Source of the DNA: a virus
Lineage: Duplodnaviria; Heunggongvirae; Uroviricota; Caudoviricetes
IMG/VR virus record: IMGVR_UViG_2778261379_000001
Length of the DNA stretch: 19,227 nt
Reading direction: 5' to 3' (one strand)
Shown here one piece after another: positions 5,116-15,807 of the stretch. Every line of letters begins with the position of its first letter. Position 1 is the stretch's first letter. The position numbers were made by a program, and so were the translations under genes. The notes under the pieces were generated by a model, which had not been told where the DNA came from, ran no database searches, and saw nothing but the letters and a program-made list of their open reading frames with translations.

Positions 5116-5952
5116 TCAGAAGTCAGCCAGCTGGTCGGAGGCTGCGCCCGTTGCGGTGAAGCGGTTCTGCGGATCGCCGTCCTGCGTGCGCAGTTTTTCC
5201 TTCAATGCTGTCAGCTCTGTGGTCAGTGACGTGATTTTCTGGCGGTCCTGCTGATGGCGGGTTTCCAGCACATTAAAACGGTCGATAATGTCGGCCTGTG
5301 ACGTTGCAACGCCTTCCACCGCTTCCTGAATTCGGGAGAAACTGGCGTCATCCGCTTTGCGGCCACGACCAATAATCCCCATTACGCGGTTAAACCACTG
5401 GGTGCCTTCTTCCTGGCGTTGTTCTGCCATTTCGATGATTTCAGACTCGATGGCTTCGGAGATAAGCGGTGCTTCACCCTGGATACTGTTGAACGTCATC
5501 ACCGCCTGACGTTGCTGTGCCGTGAATTTCAGGCGCTCAGTGCCCAGGCTTGCCGGGGTGTCGGTCATCGCCAGCCCGACCAGATAGGCGCGCCCGTTAA
5601 CGGAGAACTGCGGGTGCAGTTCGATACTGGAATAGATTTTCTTGCCGTCAGCGACAAGCTGCTTCATGCGCTCGGTCGGTTCGATTTCTGCATACAGCGC
5701 AGTACGTCCGGCCAGCGGACCTTCCGTAATGTCTTCCGTACTCAGTGCGGTGACATCGCCCATTGCGGAAAATTCGCTTGACGGACATGGCGAGAGATAG
5801 TGCTCAACGTTCACGCGGGCAGCGTAAACATCCGGGTTGAAGTTCTCGGCGGCTTCACGCAGATGCACCGGACTGATTTCACGGCCATCAACAGTTGATC
5901 CGGAGACAGCCACGCGAAACTTTTTGCGGGATGTCTTTTTTTCATTAGCCAT
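5116..5952 (-). CDS. O: capsid scaffold protein, gpO-like
   Basis: Start taken at the internal ATG at 5952, which has SD GAGGGG 8 nt upstream: MANEKKTSRKKFRVAVSGSTVDGREIS..., matching the P2 gpO N-terminus. The track ATG at 5985 has no SD. Confidence 0.85.
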   Translation of the reverse strand: MANEKKTSRKKFRVAVSGSTVDGREISPVHLREAAENFNPDVYAARVNVEHYLSPCPSSEFSAMGDVTALSTEDITEGPLAGRTALYAEIEPTERMKQLVADGKKIYSSIELHPQFSVNGRAYLVGLAMTDTPASLGTERLKFTAQQRQAVMTFNSIQGEAPLISEAIESEIIEMAEQRQEEGTQWFNRVMGIIGRGRKADDASFSRIQEAVEGVATSQADIIDRFNVLETRHQQDRQKITSLTTELTALKEKLRTQDGDPQNRFTATGAASDQLADF

Positions 5953-9872: not shown

Positions 9873-9942
9873 GTGCACGCACGGATCCTTGACGGATCCA
9901 GCCGCCATGCGGGCCGGAAGGGTAAAAAGTCGTTCAAAAAAA

Positions 9943-9969
9943 TTGTGCAAATTTGTGCACTTTTGTGCA
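9943..9969 (+). repeat. three direct TTGTGCA heptamers at exact 10-bp phasing (9943, 9953, 9963)
   Basis: Sequence reads TTGTGCAaatTTGTGCActtTTGTGCA. The last copy ends about 20 bp upstream of the candidate -35. Confidence 0.45.
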
Positions 9970-9988
9970 GGTAAGCATGCCTATATAT

Positions 9989-10017
9989 TTGACCGTGGCT
10001 TGCCTTTGATGTAGTTT
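9989..10017 (+). promoter_or_regulatory. candidate sigma70-type promoter for the AT-rich cassette
   Basis: TTGACC (9989..9994), 17-bp spacer, TAGTTT (10012..10017). Weak -10, pattern match only. Confidence 0.25.
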
Positions 10018-10069
10018 ATACGTCACAAAAACCACAAAACGTGGTTATGATTTCTATGAGGGGGTTGAT

Positions 10070-10105
10070 ATGAAAAAAATGTATGATGAATTTGATGGTT
10101 TCTAA
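10070..10105 (+). CDS. candidate 11-codon leader peptide (MKKMYDEFDGF)
   Basis: ATG preceded by GAGGGGG SD with about 6-nt spacer, stop TAA at 10103..10105, followed 20 nt later by an intrinsic terminator and then the first cassette gene. Confidence 0.25.
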   Translation: MKKMYDEFDGF

Positions 10106-10125
10106 GCTACGTTGACCTCTAATGA

Positions 10126-10152
10126 GGCGGGGATTTGCTCCCCGCCTTTTTT
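10126..10152 (+). terminator. intrinsic terminator / candidate attenuator just upstream of the cassette
   Basis: GGCGGGGA-TTTGC-TCCCCGCC followed by TTTTTT. The stop of the hairpin is 14 nt before the 10167 start codon. Confidence 0.45.
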
Positions 10153-10166
10153 ATGGATGAAATAGG

Positions 10167-10664
10167 ATGAACCCAATAACACTACAAATCATCAGCAATG
10201 CTATTGTTCTGCTTGGCGTTTTGGTTGCCATTGGAACCATTATCTACAATGTGCGTACCGCAAAAAAAACTCAAACGGCCAACTTTCTTTTTGAGAGTCG
10301 GCAAGATATGCAATATATAGAGTCATTGCATACCCTGAAACAAGTGCATCGTTCAGGCAAATCATTTCGTTCTTATGTTTTTCCTTGTGATGGTTGCATA
10401 ATAACAGATGAAGAAATGGCCGAGCGTCGAAAATTTCAATATATTTTAAATTTTTACGAGCGAGTTGCTGTAAGTATTCGTGAAGGTATTTATGATGAAA
10501 AAATGATAAAAAGAACATCTTACACAACAGTTGTAGAGACATATGATATTGCCGAGCCATTAATTAAAGCAATCAGAGAAAGCATTAATTCGGATACTAC
10601 ATATCAAGAATTCGAATGGTTAGTAAGAAGATGGAAAGCTAATCCTTTACGGAAAAACAAATAA
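10167..10664 (+). CDS. hypothetical membrane-anchored protein, 165 aa (one N-terminal TM helix plus soluble domain); first gene of AT-rich cassette
   Basis: ATG start. N-terminus ITLQIISNAIVLLGVLVAIGTIIY is a clear TM helix followed by a charged, mixed soluble region. Codon usage is strongly AT-biased relative to neighbours. No motif I recognise. Confidence 0.65.
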   Translation: MNPITLQIISNAIVLLGVLVAIGTIIYNVRTAKKTQTANFLFESRQDMQYIESLHTLKQVHRSGKSFRSYVFPCDGCIITDEEMAERRKFQYILNFYERVAVSIREGIYDEKMIKRTSYTTVVETYDIAEPLIKAIRESINSDTTYQEFEWLVRRWKANPLRKNK

Positions 10665-10703
10665 TGTTTTACCCTTTAATTTACAAGTAACACAGGGGGA
10701 AGT

Positions 10704-11546
10704 GTGACACAGAATCCGTTTTCATTTTATGACTTTTTGGGCTATCTAATTCCAGGTGGGTTATTCCTGTTTATCCTTTTTTTGTTTTCTATTGAAATTA
10801 ACCCTGTTTATATAGAAGGTATTCTTAACCATATCCTGAAATATAAAGAAATAATAAGTGTATTTATATATGTGGTATTAATCGTTCTATCATATATTTC
10901 AGGTCACTTCATATCTATTCTATCATCCTGTTTAATTGAAAAATACATGAACAGTAAACTTGGGTATCCTTCAATTTATCTGTTTTCTAAAAGAAGCTCC
11001 CTGAAAATAAAACGACATAATACTAAGTTCAGTATAGTTAATTTTATTCGTGGAGTTTTTTTATTTCCTGTATCAGCTTTTGATAAAGCAGAACATCATA
11101 AAACCACACTGCATTCTATACTTATTAAAGTCTTTTGGCCGCAAATACGAGATGGTTATATAAATGTTTTTTCTGTATCTACGCTATATCGACGTAAGGG
11201 CTTGAGGGGCGATCTTTTTCGCCTTGCTTATCATTATGTGTATGAACATTCTAAAAATCATCAGGTGAAAATGCAAAACTATGTTGCTTTGTATGGTTTT
11301 TGTAGAAACATTACATTTGTTTTTCTCGCTTCAGTCTGGTTGCTTATGTTCCTGCTCCTTCTATCCTTTTTAATAGATATAAATATCAGACTGTTACCTT
11401 TTTGTTTTCTTCTCTTGTTTTGTATTGCTGCATCCCGAGTATTTTATTATGGTTTTGTTAAGTATTATCGCCGCTATTCTCTTGAGGTTTTAATGGCATT
11501 TGCGGTACTTCAGCACGATAAAAAAACTTCGGCAATTTCATCATGA
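10704..11546 (+). CDS. hypothetical polytopic membrane protein, 280 aa (about four TM helices: two N-terminal, two C-terminal, with a central cytosolic region)
   Basis: GTG start with GGGGGA SD just upstream. Hydrophobic segments at about residues 12-29, 52-75, 197-220 and 225-245. AT-rich like the upstream gene, 39-bp gap, same strand. Confidence 0.65.
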   Translation: MTQNPFSFYDFLGYLIPGGLFLFILFLFSIEINPVYIEGILNHILKYKEIISVFIYVVLIVLSYISGHFISILSSCLIEKYMNSKLGYPSIYLFSKRSSLKIKRHNTKFSIVNFIRGVFLFPVSAFDKAEHHKTTLHSILIKVFWPQIRDGYINVFSVSTLYRRKGLRGDLFRLAYHYVYEHSKNHQVKMQNYVALYGFCRNITFVFLASVWLLMFLLLLSFLIDINIRLLPFCFLLLFCIAASRVFYYGFVKYYRRYSLEVLMAFAVLQHDKKTSAISS

Positions 11547-11557
11547 TTTGAAACATT

Positions 11558-11580
11558 GGCACCCTGTTAGCAAGGGTGCC
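11558..11580. other. hairpin GGCACCCT-GTTAGCA-AGGGTGCC between the convergent cassette and parR
   Basis: Read directly from the sequence. No adjacent T-tract on either strand. Confidence 0.3.
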
Positions 11581-11629
11581 AGAATGATGTGTTGGTCTGT
11601 ATTTTATTAGTTCACATACAATTATCAGA

Positions 11630-11944
11630 TTATTCTGGGAATAAGGTCTGAATATTCTTTTTTATTTTATAAAAATTGCATTCAACTCCGCTAGGCTGAT
11701 TATCCTGGTATGTTTCCTTGATGCTAACGGTATTGAAGGGGAGGTTGTCCTCTGGCCATTCGGCCATCCAGTAGGCAAATGCTGGGTTGCGCTTTATGAG
11801 CGCTAGCCCAGCCAGAAAGGCCGCGCGTTGCGCGCGGCTGCGTTCGGAGGCTGGCAGGCTATCGAGGTAATTGCACGCCTCCTGTTCACTCTTGACGGCG
11901 GCGGGCTTCAGATAGAAACTTATCCGTCTGGTTGGTGTCGTCAT
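11630..11944 (-). CDS. parR: ParR-like partition adaptor (ribbon-helix-helix centromere-binding protein)
   Basis: Internal ATG at 11944 with SD AAGGAG 7 nt upstream, 4 nt after the parM stop. N-terminal region RRISFYLKP...LDSLPASERSRAQRAAFLAGLALIKRNP aligns with remembered R1 ParR (RRTIAFKLNP...LDSIPQGERSRLNRAALTAGLALYRQDP). Confidence 0.6.
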   Translation of the reverse strand: MTTPTRRISFYLKPAAVKSEQEACNYLDSLPASERSRAQRAAFLAGLALIKRNPAFAYWMAEWPEDNLPFNTVSIKETYQDNQPSGVECNFYKIKKNIQTLFPE

Positions 11945-11948
11945 TGGT

Positions 11949-12908
11949 TTACTCCTTGTCCATTGCGTACAGCCCATTAACCAGAGCAAACTGTGGCACC
12001 CCGTCCGCGATGAAAGTCGCATTAACTCCGCAGACTTCGCGGATAGCGGGTGCCACAATCTCCGCCCCTCCACCGACAACCATCACCCGCCCGTAACCCG
12101 AAAAAACCGCCAGCGCGCGGATCACGCGTTGTTTCAGTGTTTCTTCCTTTTCACGAATAACCGCCATCAGGCTGGCGTAATGCGCGTCATTGTGGATGTG
12201 CTGGCGCAGCCAGGCTTCATCATGGCGATGTTCGATAATGGTATTGGCGATGTGGTGACTGGTGCGCATACCGTTAGTGGCCATCACCGACAGTACGGCA
12301 TCGGCCATCAGGGAAACGCCTACGTGTGGATCGCAAAACACCTGGCTGATACCTGCCAGTTGCCCTTGAACCTTTGCCACATCCAGCGTGGTTCCGCCTA
12401 AATCCACAATCAGCAGGGATTCAAACGGACTCATGTCAGCCAGTGCTTTAAAGCCAGCCGGAATGGATTCAGGCATAACCCGCACGTTACGGATAGTGAA
12501 TGCTTCGCCGTTCTGGTATTCCACCGGGCGCATAACGTTCGCTTTTTTGCGGTTGATGTTGGCCATGTCCGGCTGTGCGTTTGTGTCGAAATACTCGCTC
12601 AGTGGCAGGGTGACAACCACATCCACCTCCTGTGGCGTGATGCCTGATTTGACCAGCGCGTGATGAATGGCGATTACATTCACATCGCTGTACTGGTATT
12701 GCGTGTCGGTCGTCTGGACAAAGCGATCGCTAACCGGATCAAAACCATAGCGCACGCCATCAAGCATGTAGTTCGCGGGCTGCATGCCACCGAACGGCGC
12801 AGACCATTCCGACTTGAAGCTGTTCGGGCTGATGGCGTTGCGGCGTTCGCCATTCTCAGTCCATGCCAGCTTGATGTTGGTGGAGCCGTCGTCGATACAA
12901 ATTTTCAT
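11949..12908 (-). CDS. parM: ParM/StbA-family actin-like segregation ATPase
   Basis: 319 aa. N-terminus MKICIDDGSTNIKLAW...ISPNSFKSEW...YQYSDVNVIAIHHALVKSG closely matches remembered R1 ParM (MLVFIDDGSTNIKLQW...ISPNSFKREW...WQYSDVNVVAVHHALLTSG). Good SD AAGGA. Confidence 0.85.
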   Translation of the reverse strand: MKICIDDGSTNIKLAWTENGERRNAISPNSFKSEWSAPFGGMQPANYMLDGVRYGFDPVSDRFVQTTDTQYQYSDVNVIAIHHALVKSGITPQEVDVVVTLPLSEYFDTNAQPDMANINRKKANVMRPVEYQNGEAFTIRNVRVMPESIPAGFKALADMSPFESLLIVDLGGTTLDVAKVQGQLAGISQVFCDPHVGVSLMADAVLSVMATNGMRTSHHIANTIIEHRHDEAWLRQHIHNDAHYASLMAVIREKEETLKQRVIRALAVFSGYGRVMVVGGGAEIVAPAIREVCGVNATFIADGVPQFALVNGLYAMDKE

Positions 12909-12939
12909 GTCGCTTTTCCTTATGTTGATTAATTAATCG

Positions 12940-13051
12940 TTTACGGGATTCTGAAATCCCGTTTTTGCCTGTTTTGTGCGCGCTTCATATATCGCTGCGC
13001 GTTTTTTGCTCATTTACGGGATTCGTAAGTCCCGTTTCTGTCTGTTTTTTG
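12940..13051. repeat. two about 39-bp direct repeats (12940..12978 and 13013..13051, 33/39 identical), each containing an ACGGGA(TT)/(AA)TCCCGT inverted repeat; candidate parC centromere/operator
   Basis: Repeat 1 lies in the A-parM intergenic region 32-70 bp upstream of parM. Repeat 2 lies within the last codons of gene A. The two copies are 73 bp apart. Confidence 0.45.
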
Positions 13052-15807
13052 TTTCCACTGGTCAGGCCACCCCGCAGCAGGTCTGCTTTGCGGCTGGCGC
13101 GTTCAGTGGTTTCACTGATTCTCTGTGCGTGCTCTGCGTCGCGGATGGCGCGCAGCATGTCAGAAAGCACGGTAACGGGTGTTTTCATGGTGTTCTGGCC
13201 CTGCTGAAGTGTGGATGCCAGGCGTGCGGCGGCTTCAGGGTCTGATGCCCCCAGCTGTGCCAGATAGCTGGCGACCGGGTTATGGCGGATCTCCGTGCTG
13301 CTTACGCCATGATTACGGCTCAGGCGCTGCCAGAGCTGCGTGATTCGGCTGTCCGGGCGGGTATCCGGTTTGCGTACAATTTCAAATCCCTGCGGTGCAA
13401 TGATGCTGCCGTCAACGTACAGACTGCCGCCCCGTAACAGGTGCTGCATCTGTTGTTCACCGATATGCAGGCCGAGAGATTCAGCAGACTCCCGCCATTC
13501 TTTAGCGAGTAATTCGTGGTTATCAGGCAAAGGCCGCTGCTGTTTGCGGCTCTGTGTCCAGCTCTGCATTTCATCGCTGCTGTTTTTTGCCTGTTTGTCA
13601 CGAAGCGAACGCATCAGCGCCCGGCGTTCGTGTCGTTTCAGTGAGCGCATCCATTCGTTCACTTCAACGCCGTCAGGGAGCTGCGGCCACGGTGCTGGCC
13701 GTTCTTCCGGCTGTTCTGTCCCGTTGTTGTCCGTTTCCTGTACACGGGGACAGTTATTGCCACGAGTCCAAGGGGCGGCAGGGCCGCCCTGAAGGTCAAA
13801 ACCATTTTCGCGGGCGCTGTCTTCCGCTTCCGGTTTACGTCTTACCAGCTTCCAGTTATCCGGATGCGTGCACACACGGGAGGATTCCCCGATGAGTGGT
13901 GACCAGATCCCGTAAATCTGTACGCTCTGTTCGCCGTAATCGTTCAGCTCATCTGCGAGGTCGTAGGCGGTGCGAATCAGGTAGTCCTTGCGTGGAACAA
14001 GCACGCCACCCTGTTTTTCAATGTAGGTGGCAAAACACCCGGCATCGGCGGCAGCGAGTACCGCATCCATTGCATCATCTTTCAGCCGTTGCGGGCCTTC
14101 CGGATTGCGTGCCATCTGGCTGGCAAGGCGGCGCAGTTCACGCCACACCTGACGGGAGGGGATGCCAAAGAACTGGAACTGACGGACCCGGTGAAGGCGC
14201 GCCCAGCCGATGGCGCGCTCCACGCTCTCGGCCATTGATTTTCCGGTTTCGTGGTCCACGCGTGGCTTGCCCGTTTTCGGGTCGATGCCATCCACGGCGC
14301 GGCTGTCCAGGTTCTTTCCGATGTAGGTGGCGATGTAGCTGGTTGGCGTGCCTTTTGAGCCGTCGACATACTCCACCTTAAAGCGCGGAGTAATATCATT
14401 GCCCAGCTCGTGGCGGTCTTCCTGAATGGCAATATCGCGGGTATGGGACACAATGGTGTCGATTTCTTCCGGATGTGCAAAGACCATCATATGCCAGTGC
14501 ACGGTGCCGTCATGATGAGGCTCCACCGTGCGGATGCCATACCAGCGCAGGCCGTCGCGGTTCAGTTTTTTGCGGACCGCCGCAAAAAACGTGTTAACCA
14601 GGTAATCGCTGGAGTCGCGCATTGTGGCCCCGTTCCATTTGGGATTCGGATGACCGTTCTCCGTTGTGGCGTGGTATTTTGACGGGCAGGTGACAGTCAG
14701 AAACACCGCTTTGTCGCCACGGGCTTCGGCCAGAAGTTCCAGTCCCTTCATGGTGGCCATCATTTCTGCCTTACGGTGAACCGGGTTACTTACTCCCGCG
14801 TAATACACTGTCTCGAGATCAATCGTGAACCCGTCTTCATTTTCCAGCATGAAACTTTTCAGGAAATCGCGTGTTTTCTCGCGCTGTGCGCGAAACTCGC
14901 TTAACGCGTCCTGGCTCAGATAGGGTGATGTTTTTCTGGAAACCAGACAGGCGGCGCGGAGTTGTTCTTCTCTCCACTCGCAACGTAACAGCCACAGTTT
15001 GCGTTTCCACCATTCCGCACAGGTCAGGCGAAGGATTGCGCCCGGCAGCAGCTCCGTGTCCGGTTCGTTCCTCCGGTCTTTGTCTGTTGTCAGTGCGTCA
15101 TAATGTGGAGGCATGGCGTGCAGGTGTAACGCCATGCGGGCCAGCATCTGATACGCCTTCAGGGTTACATCCATGGTCAGCTCGCCATCGGTCGCGCCAA
15201 AGCCATCGCAGAGTTTTTCGAAGGTGCTGCTGAACATCGCCGCCGTCATGGTGGCCAGCGTCTGTATCTGGTGTTTGTTGAGCTGCGGCAGGTAAAGCAA
15301 ATCGTCCAGGCGTTCGCGTCCGGCAAGGGAGCGATAACCCGGTGTCAGCCAGCGTCCGTCAGTGCTATCCAGACGTTCGAATATTTTGCGCAGGGTTCCG
15401 CGTGCATAGCGTTCCGCCTGCCAGCTCTTTTTGCCTTTCCGGCGATCGGCTTCCTGTTTTTTGCGCAGGAAGGAGAGGTGGCGAATAAGCGGATCGCGCA
15501 GATAGGACGGCAGCAGGCGCAGCGAGGCCATGGCTTCATCCACCGCGCCACGTGCCTGTTTTCTGGCGTCTCCTGCCAGTGTGATGGTTTTGTCCTGTTT
15601 TTCCTGTGCGTCCAGGCTTTTATTAATCAGGTTGCCCAGCGGCGTGGCTGAGAACGCCGCATCAGCCATTTCCTGGCGGCGCTCGTTCTCTGCCCGGTAG
15701 GCATCCAGCCAGGAGGAAAGCGCGGATTCAGGAGCGGGGATCCCCGTTCCTTCACGCCCCACTGCGTGGCGCGGTTGTTGCCAGTCCCTGAGGTACTCTG
15801 CCGTCAT
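12985..15807 (-). CDS. A: replication initiation endonuclease (gpA-like, HUH rolling-circle nickase)
   Basis: 940 aa containing HUH motif DGTVHWHMMVFAHPEE and the tyrosine pair SYIATYIGKN. Position after the early genes is as in P2. Longer than P2 gpA as I remember it (761 aa), with the extra length C-terminal. Confidence 0.85.
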   Translation of the reverse strand: MTAEYLRDWQQPRHAVGREGTGIPAPESALSSWLDAYRAENERRQEMADAAFSATPLGNLINKSLDAQEKQDKTITLAGDARKQARGAVDEAMASLRLLPSYLRDPLIRHLSFLRKKQEADRRKGKKSWQAERYARGTLRKIFERLDSTDGRWLTPGYRSLAGRERLDDLLYLPQLNKHQIQTLATMTAAMFSSTFEKLCDGFGATDGELTMDVTLKAYQMLARMALHLHAMPPHYDALTTDKDRRNEPDTELLPGAILRLTCAEWWKRKLWLLRCEWREEQLRAACLVSRKTSPYLSQDALSEFRAQREKTRDFLKSFMLENEDGFTIDLETVYYAGVSNPVHRKAEMMATMKGLELLAEARGDKAVFLTVTCPSKYHATTENGHPNPKWNGATMRDSSDYLVNTFFAAVRKKLNRDGLRWYGIRTVEPHHDGTVHWHMMVFAHPEEIDTIVSHTRDIAIQEDRHELGNDITPRFKVEYVDGSKGTPTSYIATYIGKNLDSRAVDGIDPKTGKPRVDHETGKSMAESVERAIGWARLHRVRQFQFFGIPSRQVWRELRRLASQMARNPEGPQRLKDDAMDAVLAAADAGCFATYIEKQGGVLVPRKDYLIRTAYDLADELNDYGEQSVQIYGIWSPLIGESSRVCTHPDNWKLVRRKPEAEDSARENGFDLQGGPAAPWTRGNNCPRVQETDNNGTEQPEERPAPWPQLPDGVEVNEWMRSLKRHERRALMRSLRDKQAKNSSDEMQSWTQSRKQQRPLPDNHELLAKEWRESAESLGLHIGEQQMQHLLRGGSLYVDGSIIAPQGFEIVRKPDTRPDSRITQLWQRLSRNHGVSSTEIRHNPVASYLAQLGASDPEAAARLASTLQQGQNTMKTPVTVLSDMLRAIRDAEHAQRISETTERASRKADLLRGGLTSGNKKQTETGLTNPVNEQKTRSDI

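Follow-up and report, generated by a model that had tools for sequence, protein, structure and literature searches.

A probable type II (ParMRC) DNA-segregation module was identified in a 19,227-nucleotide stretch of a P2-like phage genome (IMG/VR record IMGVR_UViG_2778261379_000001; the whole stretch is referred to here as the window). The module consists of parM, which encodes an actin-like ATPase, parR, which encodes the predicted centromere-binding adaptor, and two palindromic repeats upstream of parM that are candidate parC sites. Both genes lie directly downstream of replication gene A (Table 1). With moderate confidence, we read this cassette as a working segregation module that belongs to the phage itself and acts on free phage circles. 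A 1.6-kb query covering the cassette (window 11550-13150) was found to be 100% identical to the prophage beside dmsA in Escherichia coli EC958 (sequence type 131, ST131) and to phages vB_EcoM-569R5 and vB_EcoM-705R2, and 96-98.6% identical to P88, phiSM, 520873 and P884B11. The P2-type gene order and this near-identity to P88-group genomes place the element among the P88-like Peduoviridae (Xuanwuvirus).

The parM product was matched over its full length to R1 ParM (PDB 1mwk; E 1.1e-92, residues 2-316). The phosphate-binding or catalytic and nucleotide-binding motifs IDDGSTNIKL, MPESIPAG, DLGGTTLD and GGGAE are the same in both proteins, so that the actin-fold ATPase of a type II system is present with its nucleotide-binding motifs intact. 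The small adaptor gene of such a system follows directly, as the parR ATG lies 4 nt past the parM stop. ParR belongs to the Pfam family of the plasmid adaptors, and its N-terminus gives a weak match to the pB171 ParR structure (PDB 2jd3; E 0.012), from which an N-terminal ribbon-helix-helix fold is predicted. The preliminary description had named the two genes as homologues of the R1-plasmid type II partition proteins placed directly downstream of gene A, and the Pfam assignments and the 1mwk alignment confirm this identification. A search of NCBIfam gave no match above threshold.

Both genes are well maintained. The parM gene is intact (319 codons) in all 83 related loci found in IMG/VR and GTDB, and ParR is intact in virtually all of them. 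The mean pairwise ratio of nonsynonymous to synonymous substitution rates (dN/dS) over 65 distinct parM alleles is 0.065, which points to strong purifying selection. The GC content of parM (0.53-0.555) is like that of the phage core, whereas the cargo genes just past parR are at 0.29-0.41. Among the ParR alleles, residues 1-65 are common, a linker at about residues 66-95 is hypervariable, and the C-terminal motif KKNIxxLFPE is kept in all alleles; N97 and F102 are invariant across nine aligned ParRs of phages and plasmids. Such a layout would be expected if a DNA-binding domain were joined by a flexible linker to a tail that binds ParM. Similarity to P88 and most other relatives ends inside parR, near position 11890, where the first 18 codons are common to the alleles and the remainder is about 56% identical with the hypervariable linker; a recombination boundary of the gene A-Q hot spot therefore seems to fall within parR.

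A protein search recovered ParMs from Hafnia, Plesiomonas, Serratia and Enterobacter that are 54-62% identical to this one. In all four genera the host element is a P2-like prophage, and parM lies downstream of its Phage_GPA gene (gene A) in the same orientation. Next come a Plasmid_stab_B gene and a short variable region, and beyond these the portal and terminase genes. Homologues at or below 52% identity occur in plasmid or integrative and conjugative element (ICE) contexts, with Rep3, ParA/ParB or Tra genes nearby. In a neighbour-joining tree computed without support values, the phage ParMs fall into two clades that are sisters to each other, and the plasmid ParMs, that of R1 among them, lie outside both. 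The conserved synteny across genera together with the separate phage clade indicates that the module is an old syntenic resident of this branch of P2-like phages and not a recent acquisition.

Outside these prophages the ParM family is sparse. Among 50,697 phage records it was found only in the P88 group and in the P1-like phage-plasmid D6 (47.8% identity). The genuine plasmid ParMs among the matches listed are all at most 52% identical, and six plasmid records with matches at 95-100% carry prophage DNA. A scan of GTDB genomes with ParM returned only three near-identical loci, while scans of IMG/VR returned one locus for the Plesiomonas type and none for the Hafnia type. A 226-kb contig labelled as the Firmicute 'Vagococcus sp. 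WN89Y' (NZ_JBQPOM010000071.1) encodes a ParM 97% identical to the E. coli phage protein and probably reflects assembly contamination or mislabelling.

Two direct repeats of 42 nt, 83% identical and with starts 73 bp apart, were found upstream of parM. They agree at 35 of 42 positions, whereas the best 42-mer match in 300 dinucleotide-preserving shuffles averaged 24.3 (sd 0.9, maximum 28). Each contains a palindrome built on CGGG-N10-CCCG, and the pattern [CT]GGG-N10-CCC[GA] is confined to these two sites in the whole window. The 3' part of gene A contains the distal repeat, 25-66 nt in from the end of the gene. The two repeats with internal palindromes, one of them embedded in gene A, had been noted in the preliminary description, where they were given as 39 bp rather than 42 nt.

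In the 81 related E. coli loci examined, parM is always accompanied by the repeats. These elements are too similar for site conservation to be judged among them, and the comparison across genera was used instead. In Plesiomonas, the box CGGG-N10-CCC[GA] occurs twice, 72 bp apart, with no other occurrence in 13 kb, and the distal box again lies in the gene A tail. In Hafnia, two boxes are found 73 bp apart upstream of parM, the distal one in an unrelated 167-residue open reading frame (ORF) inserted between gene A and parM, which indicates that the box goes with parM and not with gene A. The half-sites are kept in both genera as GGG-N12-CCC despite a ParM that is only 62% identical, and the equivalents of the proximal box stand 10-13 nt before ATTAATCAA (position 5945 of Hafnia locus L087; position 5941 of Plesiomonas locus L089). 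The persistence of the boxes and of their 72-73-bp spacing supports their role as a parC-like site, to which ParR would bind. The earlier proposal that the repeats are plausible parC sites is thus strengthened for the E. coli, Hafnia and Plesiomonas carriers of parMR, all of which keep the boxes. It does not extend in the same form to the Serratia/Enterobacter clade, in which an inverted repeat with 14-20-nt arms (..GGGAAC..ATAGAAAAAT / ATTTTTCTRT..GTTCCC..) lies directly upstream of parM. The predicted DNA-contacting beta-strand of ParR differs in parallel, TRR[IV]SFYL being paired with the GGG/CCC boxes and NRKISFYL with the Serratia/Enterobacter repeat type.

The same repeats could be read as intrinsic terminators on the plus strand, as mRNA hairpins at the gene A-parM junction or as part of the origin, a set of explanations that we consider very improbable. 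On the plus strand both palindromes are followed by T-runs and were called terminator-like, the E. coli junction RNA folds well (z -4.6), and a G-U pair would still form after CCCG to CCTG, the most frequent change in the arms. However, no plus-strand transcription reaches the repeats, and the hairpins on the coding strand are not followed by T-runs. The fold is also not kept in the other genera (z -1.5 in Plesiomonas; z 0.05 in Hafnia, with arms of only 3-4 bp) while the half-sites and the 72-73-bp spacing persist, and no Rfam family was matched; the terminator and RNA-hairpin readings are disfavoured on these grounds. An origin at the repeats was rejected since the homologue of the P2 nick site lies about 700 bp away, and in Hafnia and Enterobacter other genes separate the parM-proximal repeats from gene A.

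The transcript context suggests when the module would be made. Gene A, parM and parR follow one another in a single orientation on the minus strand across 11630-15807, and in a terminator scan the coding strand of the gene A-parM interval gave no terminator-like site. The gene A product is 30% identical to P2 A but longer (940 versus 761 residues), with about 75 N-terminal and 140 C-terminal residues unmatched in the alignment. In the P2 record, the ori nick site is annotated within gene A, at 29892. Judging from the protein and DNA alignments, gene A is a P2-type HUH endonuclease with a P2-like nick site. The parMR genes stand at the tail of the early or replication gene block cox-B-A-parM-parR. 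As the module closes this block without a terminator after gene A, it would be made while the phage genome is a free replicating circle. A sequence of the form ATTAATCAA..AAGGAA, 10-13 nt past the proximal box, is shared by the elements of E. coli, Hafnia and Plesiomonas and looks like a -10 element with a Shine-Dalgarno (SD) sequence, although the putative parM promoter was not called in the consensus promoter scan (8 of 12 matches). A hairpin between the convergent parR and cargo genes is likely to mark the end of the parMR transcript, although its T-run is weak and the terminator scan did not call it.

Table 1. Features of the parMR cassette and of its surroundings, with positions in the window.
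Feature	Position	Strand	Basis or remark
parR, adaptor / predicted centromere-binding protein, 104 residues	11630..11944	minus	Pfam Plasmid_stab_B 7.7e-29, residues 6-75
parM, actin-like ATPase, 319 residues	11949..12908	minus	Pfam StbA_N 2.7e-82 and ParM C-terminal domain 1.1e-68
Proximal repeat (candidate parC box 1)	12937..12978	minus	gene A-parM intergenic space
Box 1 palindrome, 20 bp, ACGGGATTCTGAAATCCCGT	12943-12962		coding-strand reading ACGGGATTTCAGAATCCCGT
Distal repeat (candidate parC box 2)	13010..13051	minus	within the last 22 codons of gene A
Box 2 palindrome, 20 bp, ACGGGATTCGTAAGTCCCGT	13016-13035
Gene A, replication endonuclease, 940 residues	12985..15807	minus	Phage_GPA 4.9e-131
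Homologue of the P2 ori nick site, GCCGCCCCTTGGACTCGTGGCAATAAC, inside gene A	13753..13779	minus	protein and DNA alignments to P2
Putative parM promoter and ribosome-binding region	12914..12955	minus	predicted from sequence and conserved elements
-35-like element TTCAGA	12955-12950	minus	putative; within the loop of the box 1 palindrome
-10-like element ATTAAT(CAA)	12933-12925	minus	putative
SD sequence AAGGAAAA	12921-12914	minus	putative
Hairpin GGCACCCT-N7-AGGGTGCC between convergent parR and the 280-residue cargo gene	11558..11580		read from the sequence

From these elements the following mechanism can be proposed. ParR dimers would bind the two CGGG-N10-CCCG boxes, placed about seven helical turns apart just upstream of parM, through the N-terminal ribbon-helix-helix. 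The proximal box overlaps the likely -35 element of the parM promoter, so that ParR binding would autoregulate the operon. The C-terminal KKNIxxLFPE tail of ParR would capture the ends of ATP-ParM filaments; growing by polymerisation between two ParR-parC complexes, these would drive sister DNA circles apart. The substrate would be the free circular phage genome and not the integrated prophage, and the module would act in the interval from infection to integration, after excision, and during gene A-driven rolling-circle replication that makes monomeric circles. The benefit would be a copy for both daughter cells until integration or packaging.

The closest characterised relative of the module is the ParMRC (stbAB) system of plasmids R1 and NR1. 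The ParM proteins align over their full length (E 1e-92) with the same ATP-binding motifs, the ParRs are of the same Pfam family with the C-terminal (K)xN..LF motif kept, and the order candidate cis-site, parM, parR matches that of the plasmids, with two units 70-90 bp apart upstream of parM. The differences are that the carrier here is an integrative P2-like phage rather than a plasmid, that the ParMs are only about 50% identical with the phage proteins in their own clade, and that the candidate cis-site comprises two palindromic boxes of 18-20 bp, one of them inside a coding region, in place of the 2 x 5 direct 11-bp iterons of R1. In R100-type parC, two clusters of 11-bp AAACCCA iterons are 94 bp apart, and in a Pantoea plasmid relative two clusters of TTTCTCT iterons are 72 bp apart. 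With related plasmid clusters 72-94 bp apart, the plan of two units about seven turns apart upstream of parM appears to be shared, the phage units being single palindromes and not iteron arrays.

A demonstrated precedent for a partition module that acts on free circles comes from the SXT/R391 ICEs, normally integrated elements whose srpMRC is of the ParM type. SrpMRC stabilised a test plasmid and bound repeats that precede srpM, and its presumed role is in the transient excised circle (PMC4489591). It differs from the phage module in that SrpR has no recognisable ParR domain, SrpM is of another ParM lineage (IncA/C-like), expression is driven by SetCD and the host element is an ICE. The AlpAC module of prophage CGP3 (PMC4446434), described below, is a second precedent for a partition module at work on an integrative element once it has excised.

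The published guess takes the phage for a true phage-plasmid, that is, a long-lived low-copy plasmid prophage for which ParMRC would be the maintenance system. Pfeifer et al. (2020 preprint) flagged P88 as carrying partition genes and classed it as a possible phage-plasmid with "episomal and integrative states", and the same guess was published by Rousset et al. (2022). We regard this as improbable in view of where the cassette is found. It is present in 1321 of 5426 complete E. coli genomes, and 1465 of its 1467 copies there (>99%) are chromosomal, the other two being on plasmids. In PLSDB only seven of 72,556 plasmids match: five range from 228 kb to 1.4 Mb, and the other two are a linear fragment and a circle with phage genes only. 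One of the large ones, the 228-kb conjugative KPC plasmid pC-Ec2-KPC of type IncC (NZ_MK439959.1), was examined and carries a rearranged part of this prophage between IS26 copies, 100% identical over the query, as a captured fragment. The EC958 prophage, which adjoins dmsA, keeps integrase, Cox and repressor, and no plasmid-type replicon was seen. Rolling-circle replication by a P2-type gene A is tied to late-gene activation, which also counts against a plasmid state. Neither an autonomous extrachromosomal replicon in lysogens, beyond the one circle in PLSDB, nor plasmid-type replication with dispensable integration was therefore found. Known plasmid prophages with plasmid partition genes (P1, P7 and N15 with ParAB; the P1-like D6 with an StbA-type ParM) have no chromosomal integration step and are routinely plasmids, unlike this phage with its int and Cox. 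The preliminary description had suggested a stably inherited episomal phase, for which this distribution gives no support; a transient episome after infection or excision is plausible, and ParMRC acting on transient circles fits the evidence better than a stable plasmid lifestyle.

Two records bear on the occurrence of free forms and can be counted for the phage-plasmid view. The circular record NZ_CP148288.1 (34,461 bp, deposited as a plasmid) carries P88-like phage genes only (int, Cox, A, parMR and structural genes), together with a Hok/Gef toxin gene and a Com/methyltransferase pair near ogr. It may be either a rare episomal lysogen or an assembled replicative form. In Plesiomonas shigelloides, the ParMR-bearing P2-like element lies on a phage-sized contig (WEKF01000002.1; 32,167 bp) whose end falls 141 nt after the int stop, close to the expected attP position. 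The contig end could reflect a mixed integrated and excised population, or simply a junction repeat.

Free circles would equally be the substrate if ParMR served the lytic cycle. In such an AlpAC-like role, which we hold to be rather unlikely, ParMR would be made with gene A and would move or spread the replicating circles, raising the efficiency of replication or packaging instead of inheritance at division. The position of the cassette suits this role: it stands downstream of gene A and co-oriented with it, no terminator intervenes, and the nick-site homologue is about 700 bp distant; the gene A-parMR order and orientation are kept in all five lineages. P2 packages monomeric circles, which can be counted on the same side. 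On the other hand, P2 and 186 replicate well without parMR, and the phage ParM is a close R1-type protein (about 50% identical), a type whose known activity is the bipolar pushing of paired plasmids. The parallel is the AlpAC/alpS system of prophage CGP3 in Corynebacterium glutamicum, which likewise has a prophage-encoded actin-like ATPase and an adaptor. AlpA binds upstream of its own operon, alpAC, and links the circles to AlpC filaments; AlpAC expression starts early after induction, its substrate is circular phage DNA, and both proteins are needed for efficient replication (PMC4446434, PMC5539076). AlpC is a distant actin-like protein and not an R1-type ParM, the host is actinobacterial, and it is for AlpAC that the role in replication efficiency has been shown. 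Sequence alone cannot separate such a lytic role from the action of ParMRC on circles that we favour.

Several observations weigh against the segregation reading itself. The arms of the boxes are not clearly more conserved than their flanks among the E. coli elements, and CCTG replaces CCCG in the proximal box in 10 of 40 E. coli variants. There are two boxes (four half-sites) here versus the ten iterons of R1 parC, and a full ParR ring or helix on so short a site is hypothetical. To our knowledge, P2 and 186 manage without any such module, and we know of no demonstrated need for partition in a phage that integrates soon after infection.

A wider reading, which we put forward tentatively, is that ParMRC may be an ancestral, vertically inherited core module of a multi-genus P2-like branch (Escherichia, Citrobacter, Salmonella, Hafnia, Plesiomonas, Serratia and Enterobacter). 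It would give the phage an actin cytoskeleton of its own, serving free circles at establishment or in lytic growth, as a Gram-negative myovirus counterpart of AlpAC or PhuZ, with a minimal two-box centromere, and would not be a plasmid-maintenance device.

The cassette also adjoins cargo of the P2 gene A-Q hot spot, which was observed as an AT-rich region (window 9900-11546; GC 0.29-0.41) with two genes on the plus strand. The ORFs at 10167-10664 and 10704-11546 comprise one for a DUF4760 protein and one for a 280-residue protein with a weak PADLOC match to Csx27 (1.1e-5), which may be an uncharacterised anti-phage candidate. Since the cassette lies between gene A and Q, in a hot spot catalogued for defence systems (Rousset et al. 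2022), and directly adjoins such cargo, with parR itself mosaic near 11890, ParMR could be thought of as cargo directed at the host or at competitors, for instance through ParR/parC incompatibility against incoming related phages or plasmids, or through an effect on chromosome segregation. We consider this highly improbable. A defence system was not indicated, neither ParM nor ParR being matched in PADLOC, and the window has no further occurrence of the box motif. In every case the cassette adjoins gene A, its GC content is phage-like and its position is kept across genera, while the true cargo past parR varies. At the other end of the window, the minus strand of 1-1152 covers part of a large DUF6645 gene, whose length in EC958 is 1878 nt. 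With the tail genes on one side and the lysis genes on the other, it may be an unusually placed moron.

Neither the gene pair nor the idea that the phage may also be a plasmid is new. RefSeq labels the products "plasmid segregation protein ParM" and "plasmid partitioning/stability family protein", and the idea has been in print, as described above. No functional study of the cassette was found in the literature, and a 2025 paper in JBC on chromosome-encoded ParMs makes no mention of phages. What is new here is the candidate two-box cis-site and its conservation, the synteny across genera with a separate phage clade, the purifying selection on parM and the distribution evidence against a plasmid prophage.

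This cassette is carried in an integrated prophage, where plasmid partition has no obvious job, by about one in four complete E. coli genomes, those of the pandemic ST131 clone among them. If the module acts on transient circles, integrative phages would, like SXT-type ICEs, invest in the active segregation of a short-lived free form, which would bear on the efficiency of lysogenisation and on prophage loss. The two palindromic boxes would then constitute a very small natural centromere for an R1-type ParR.

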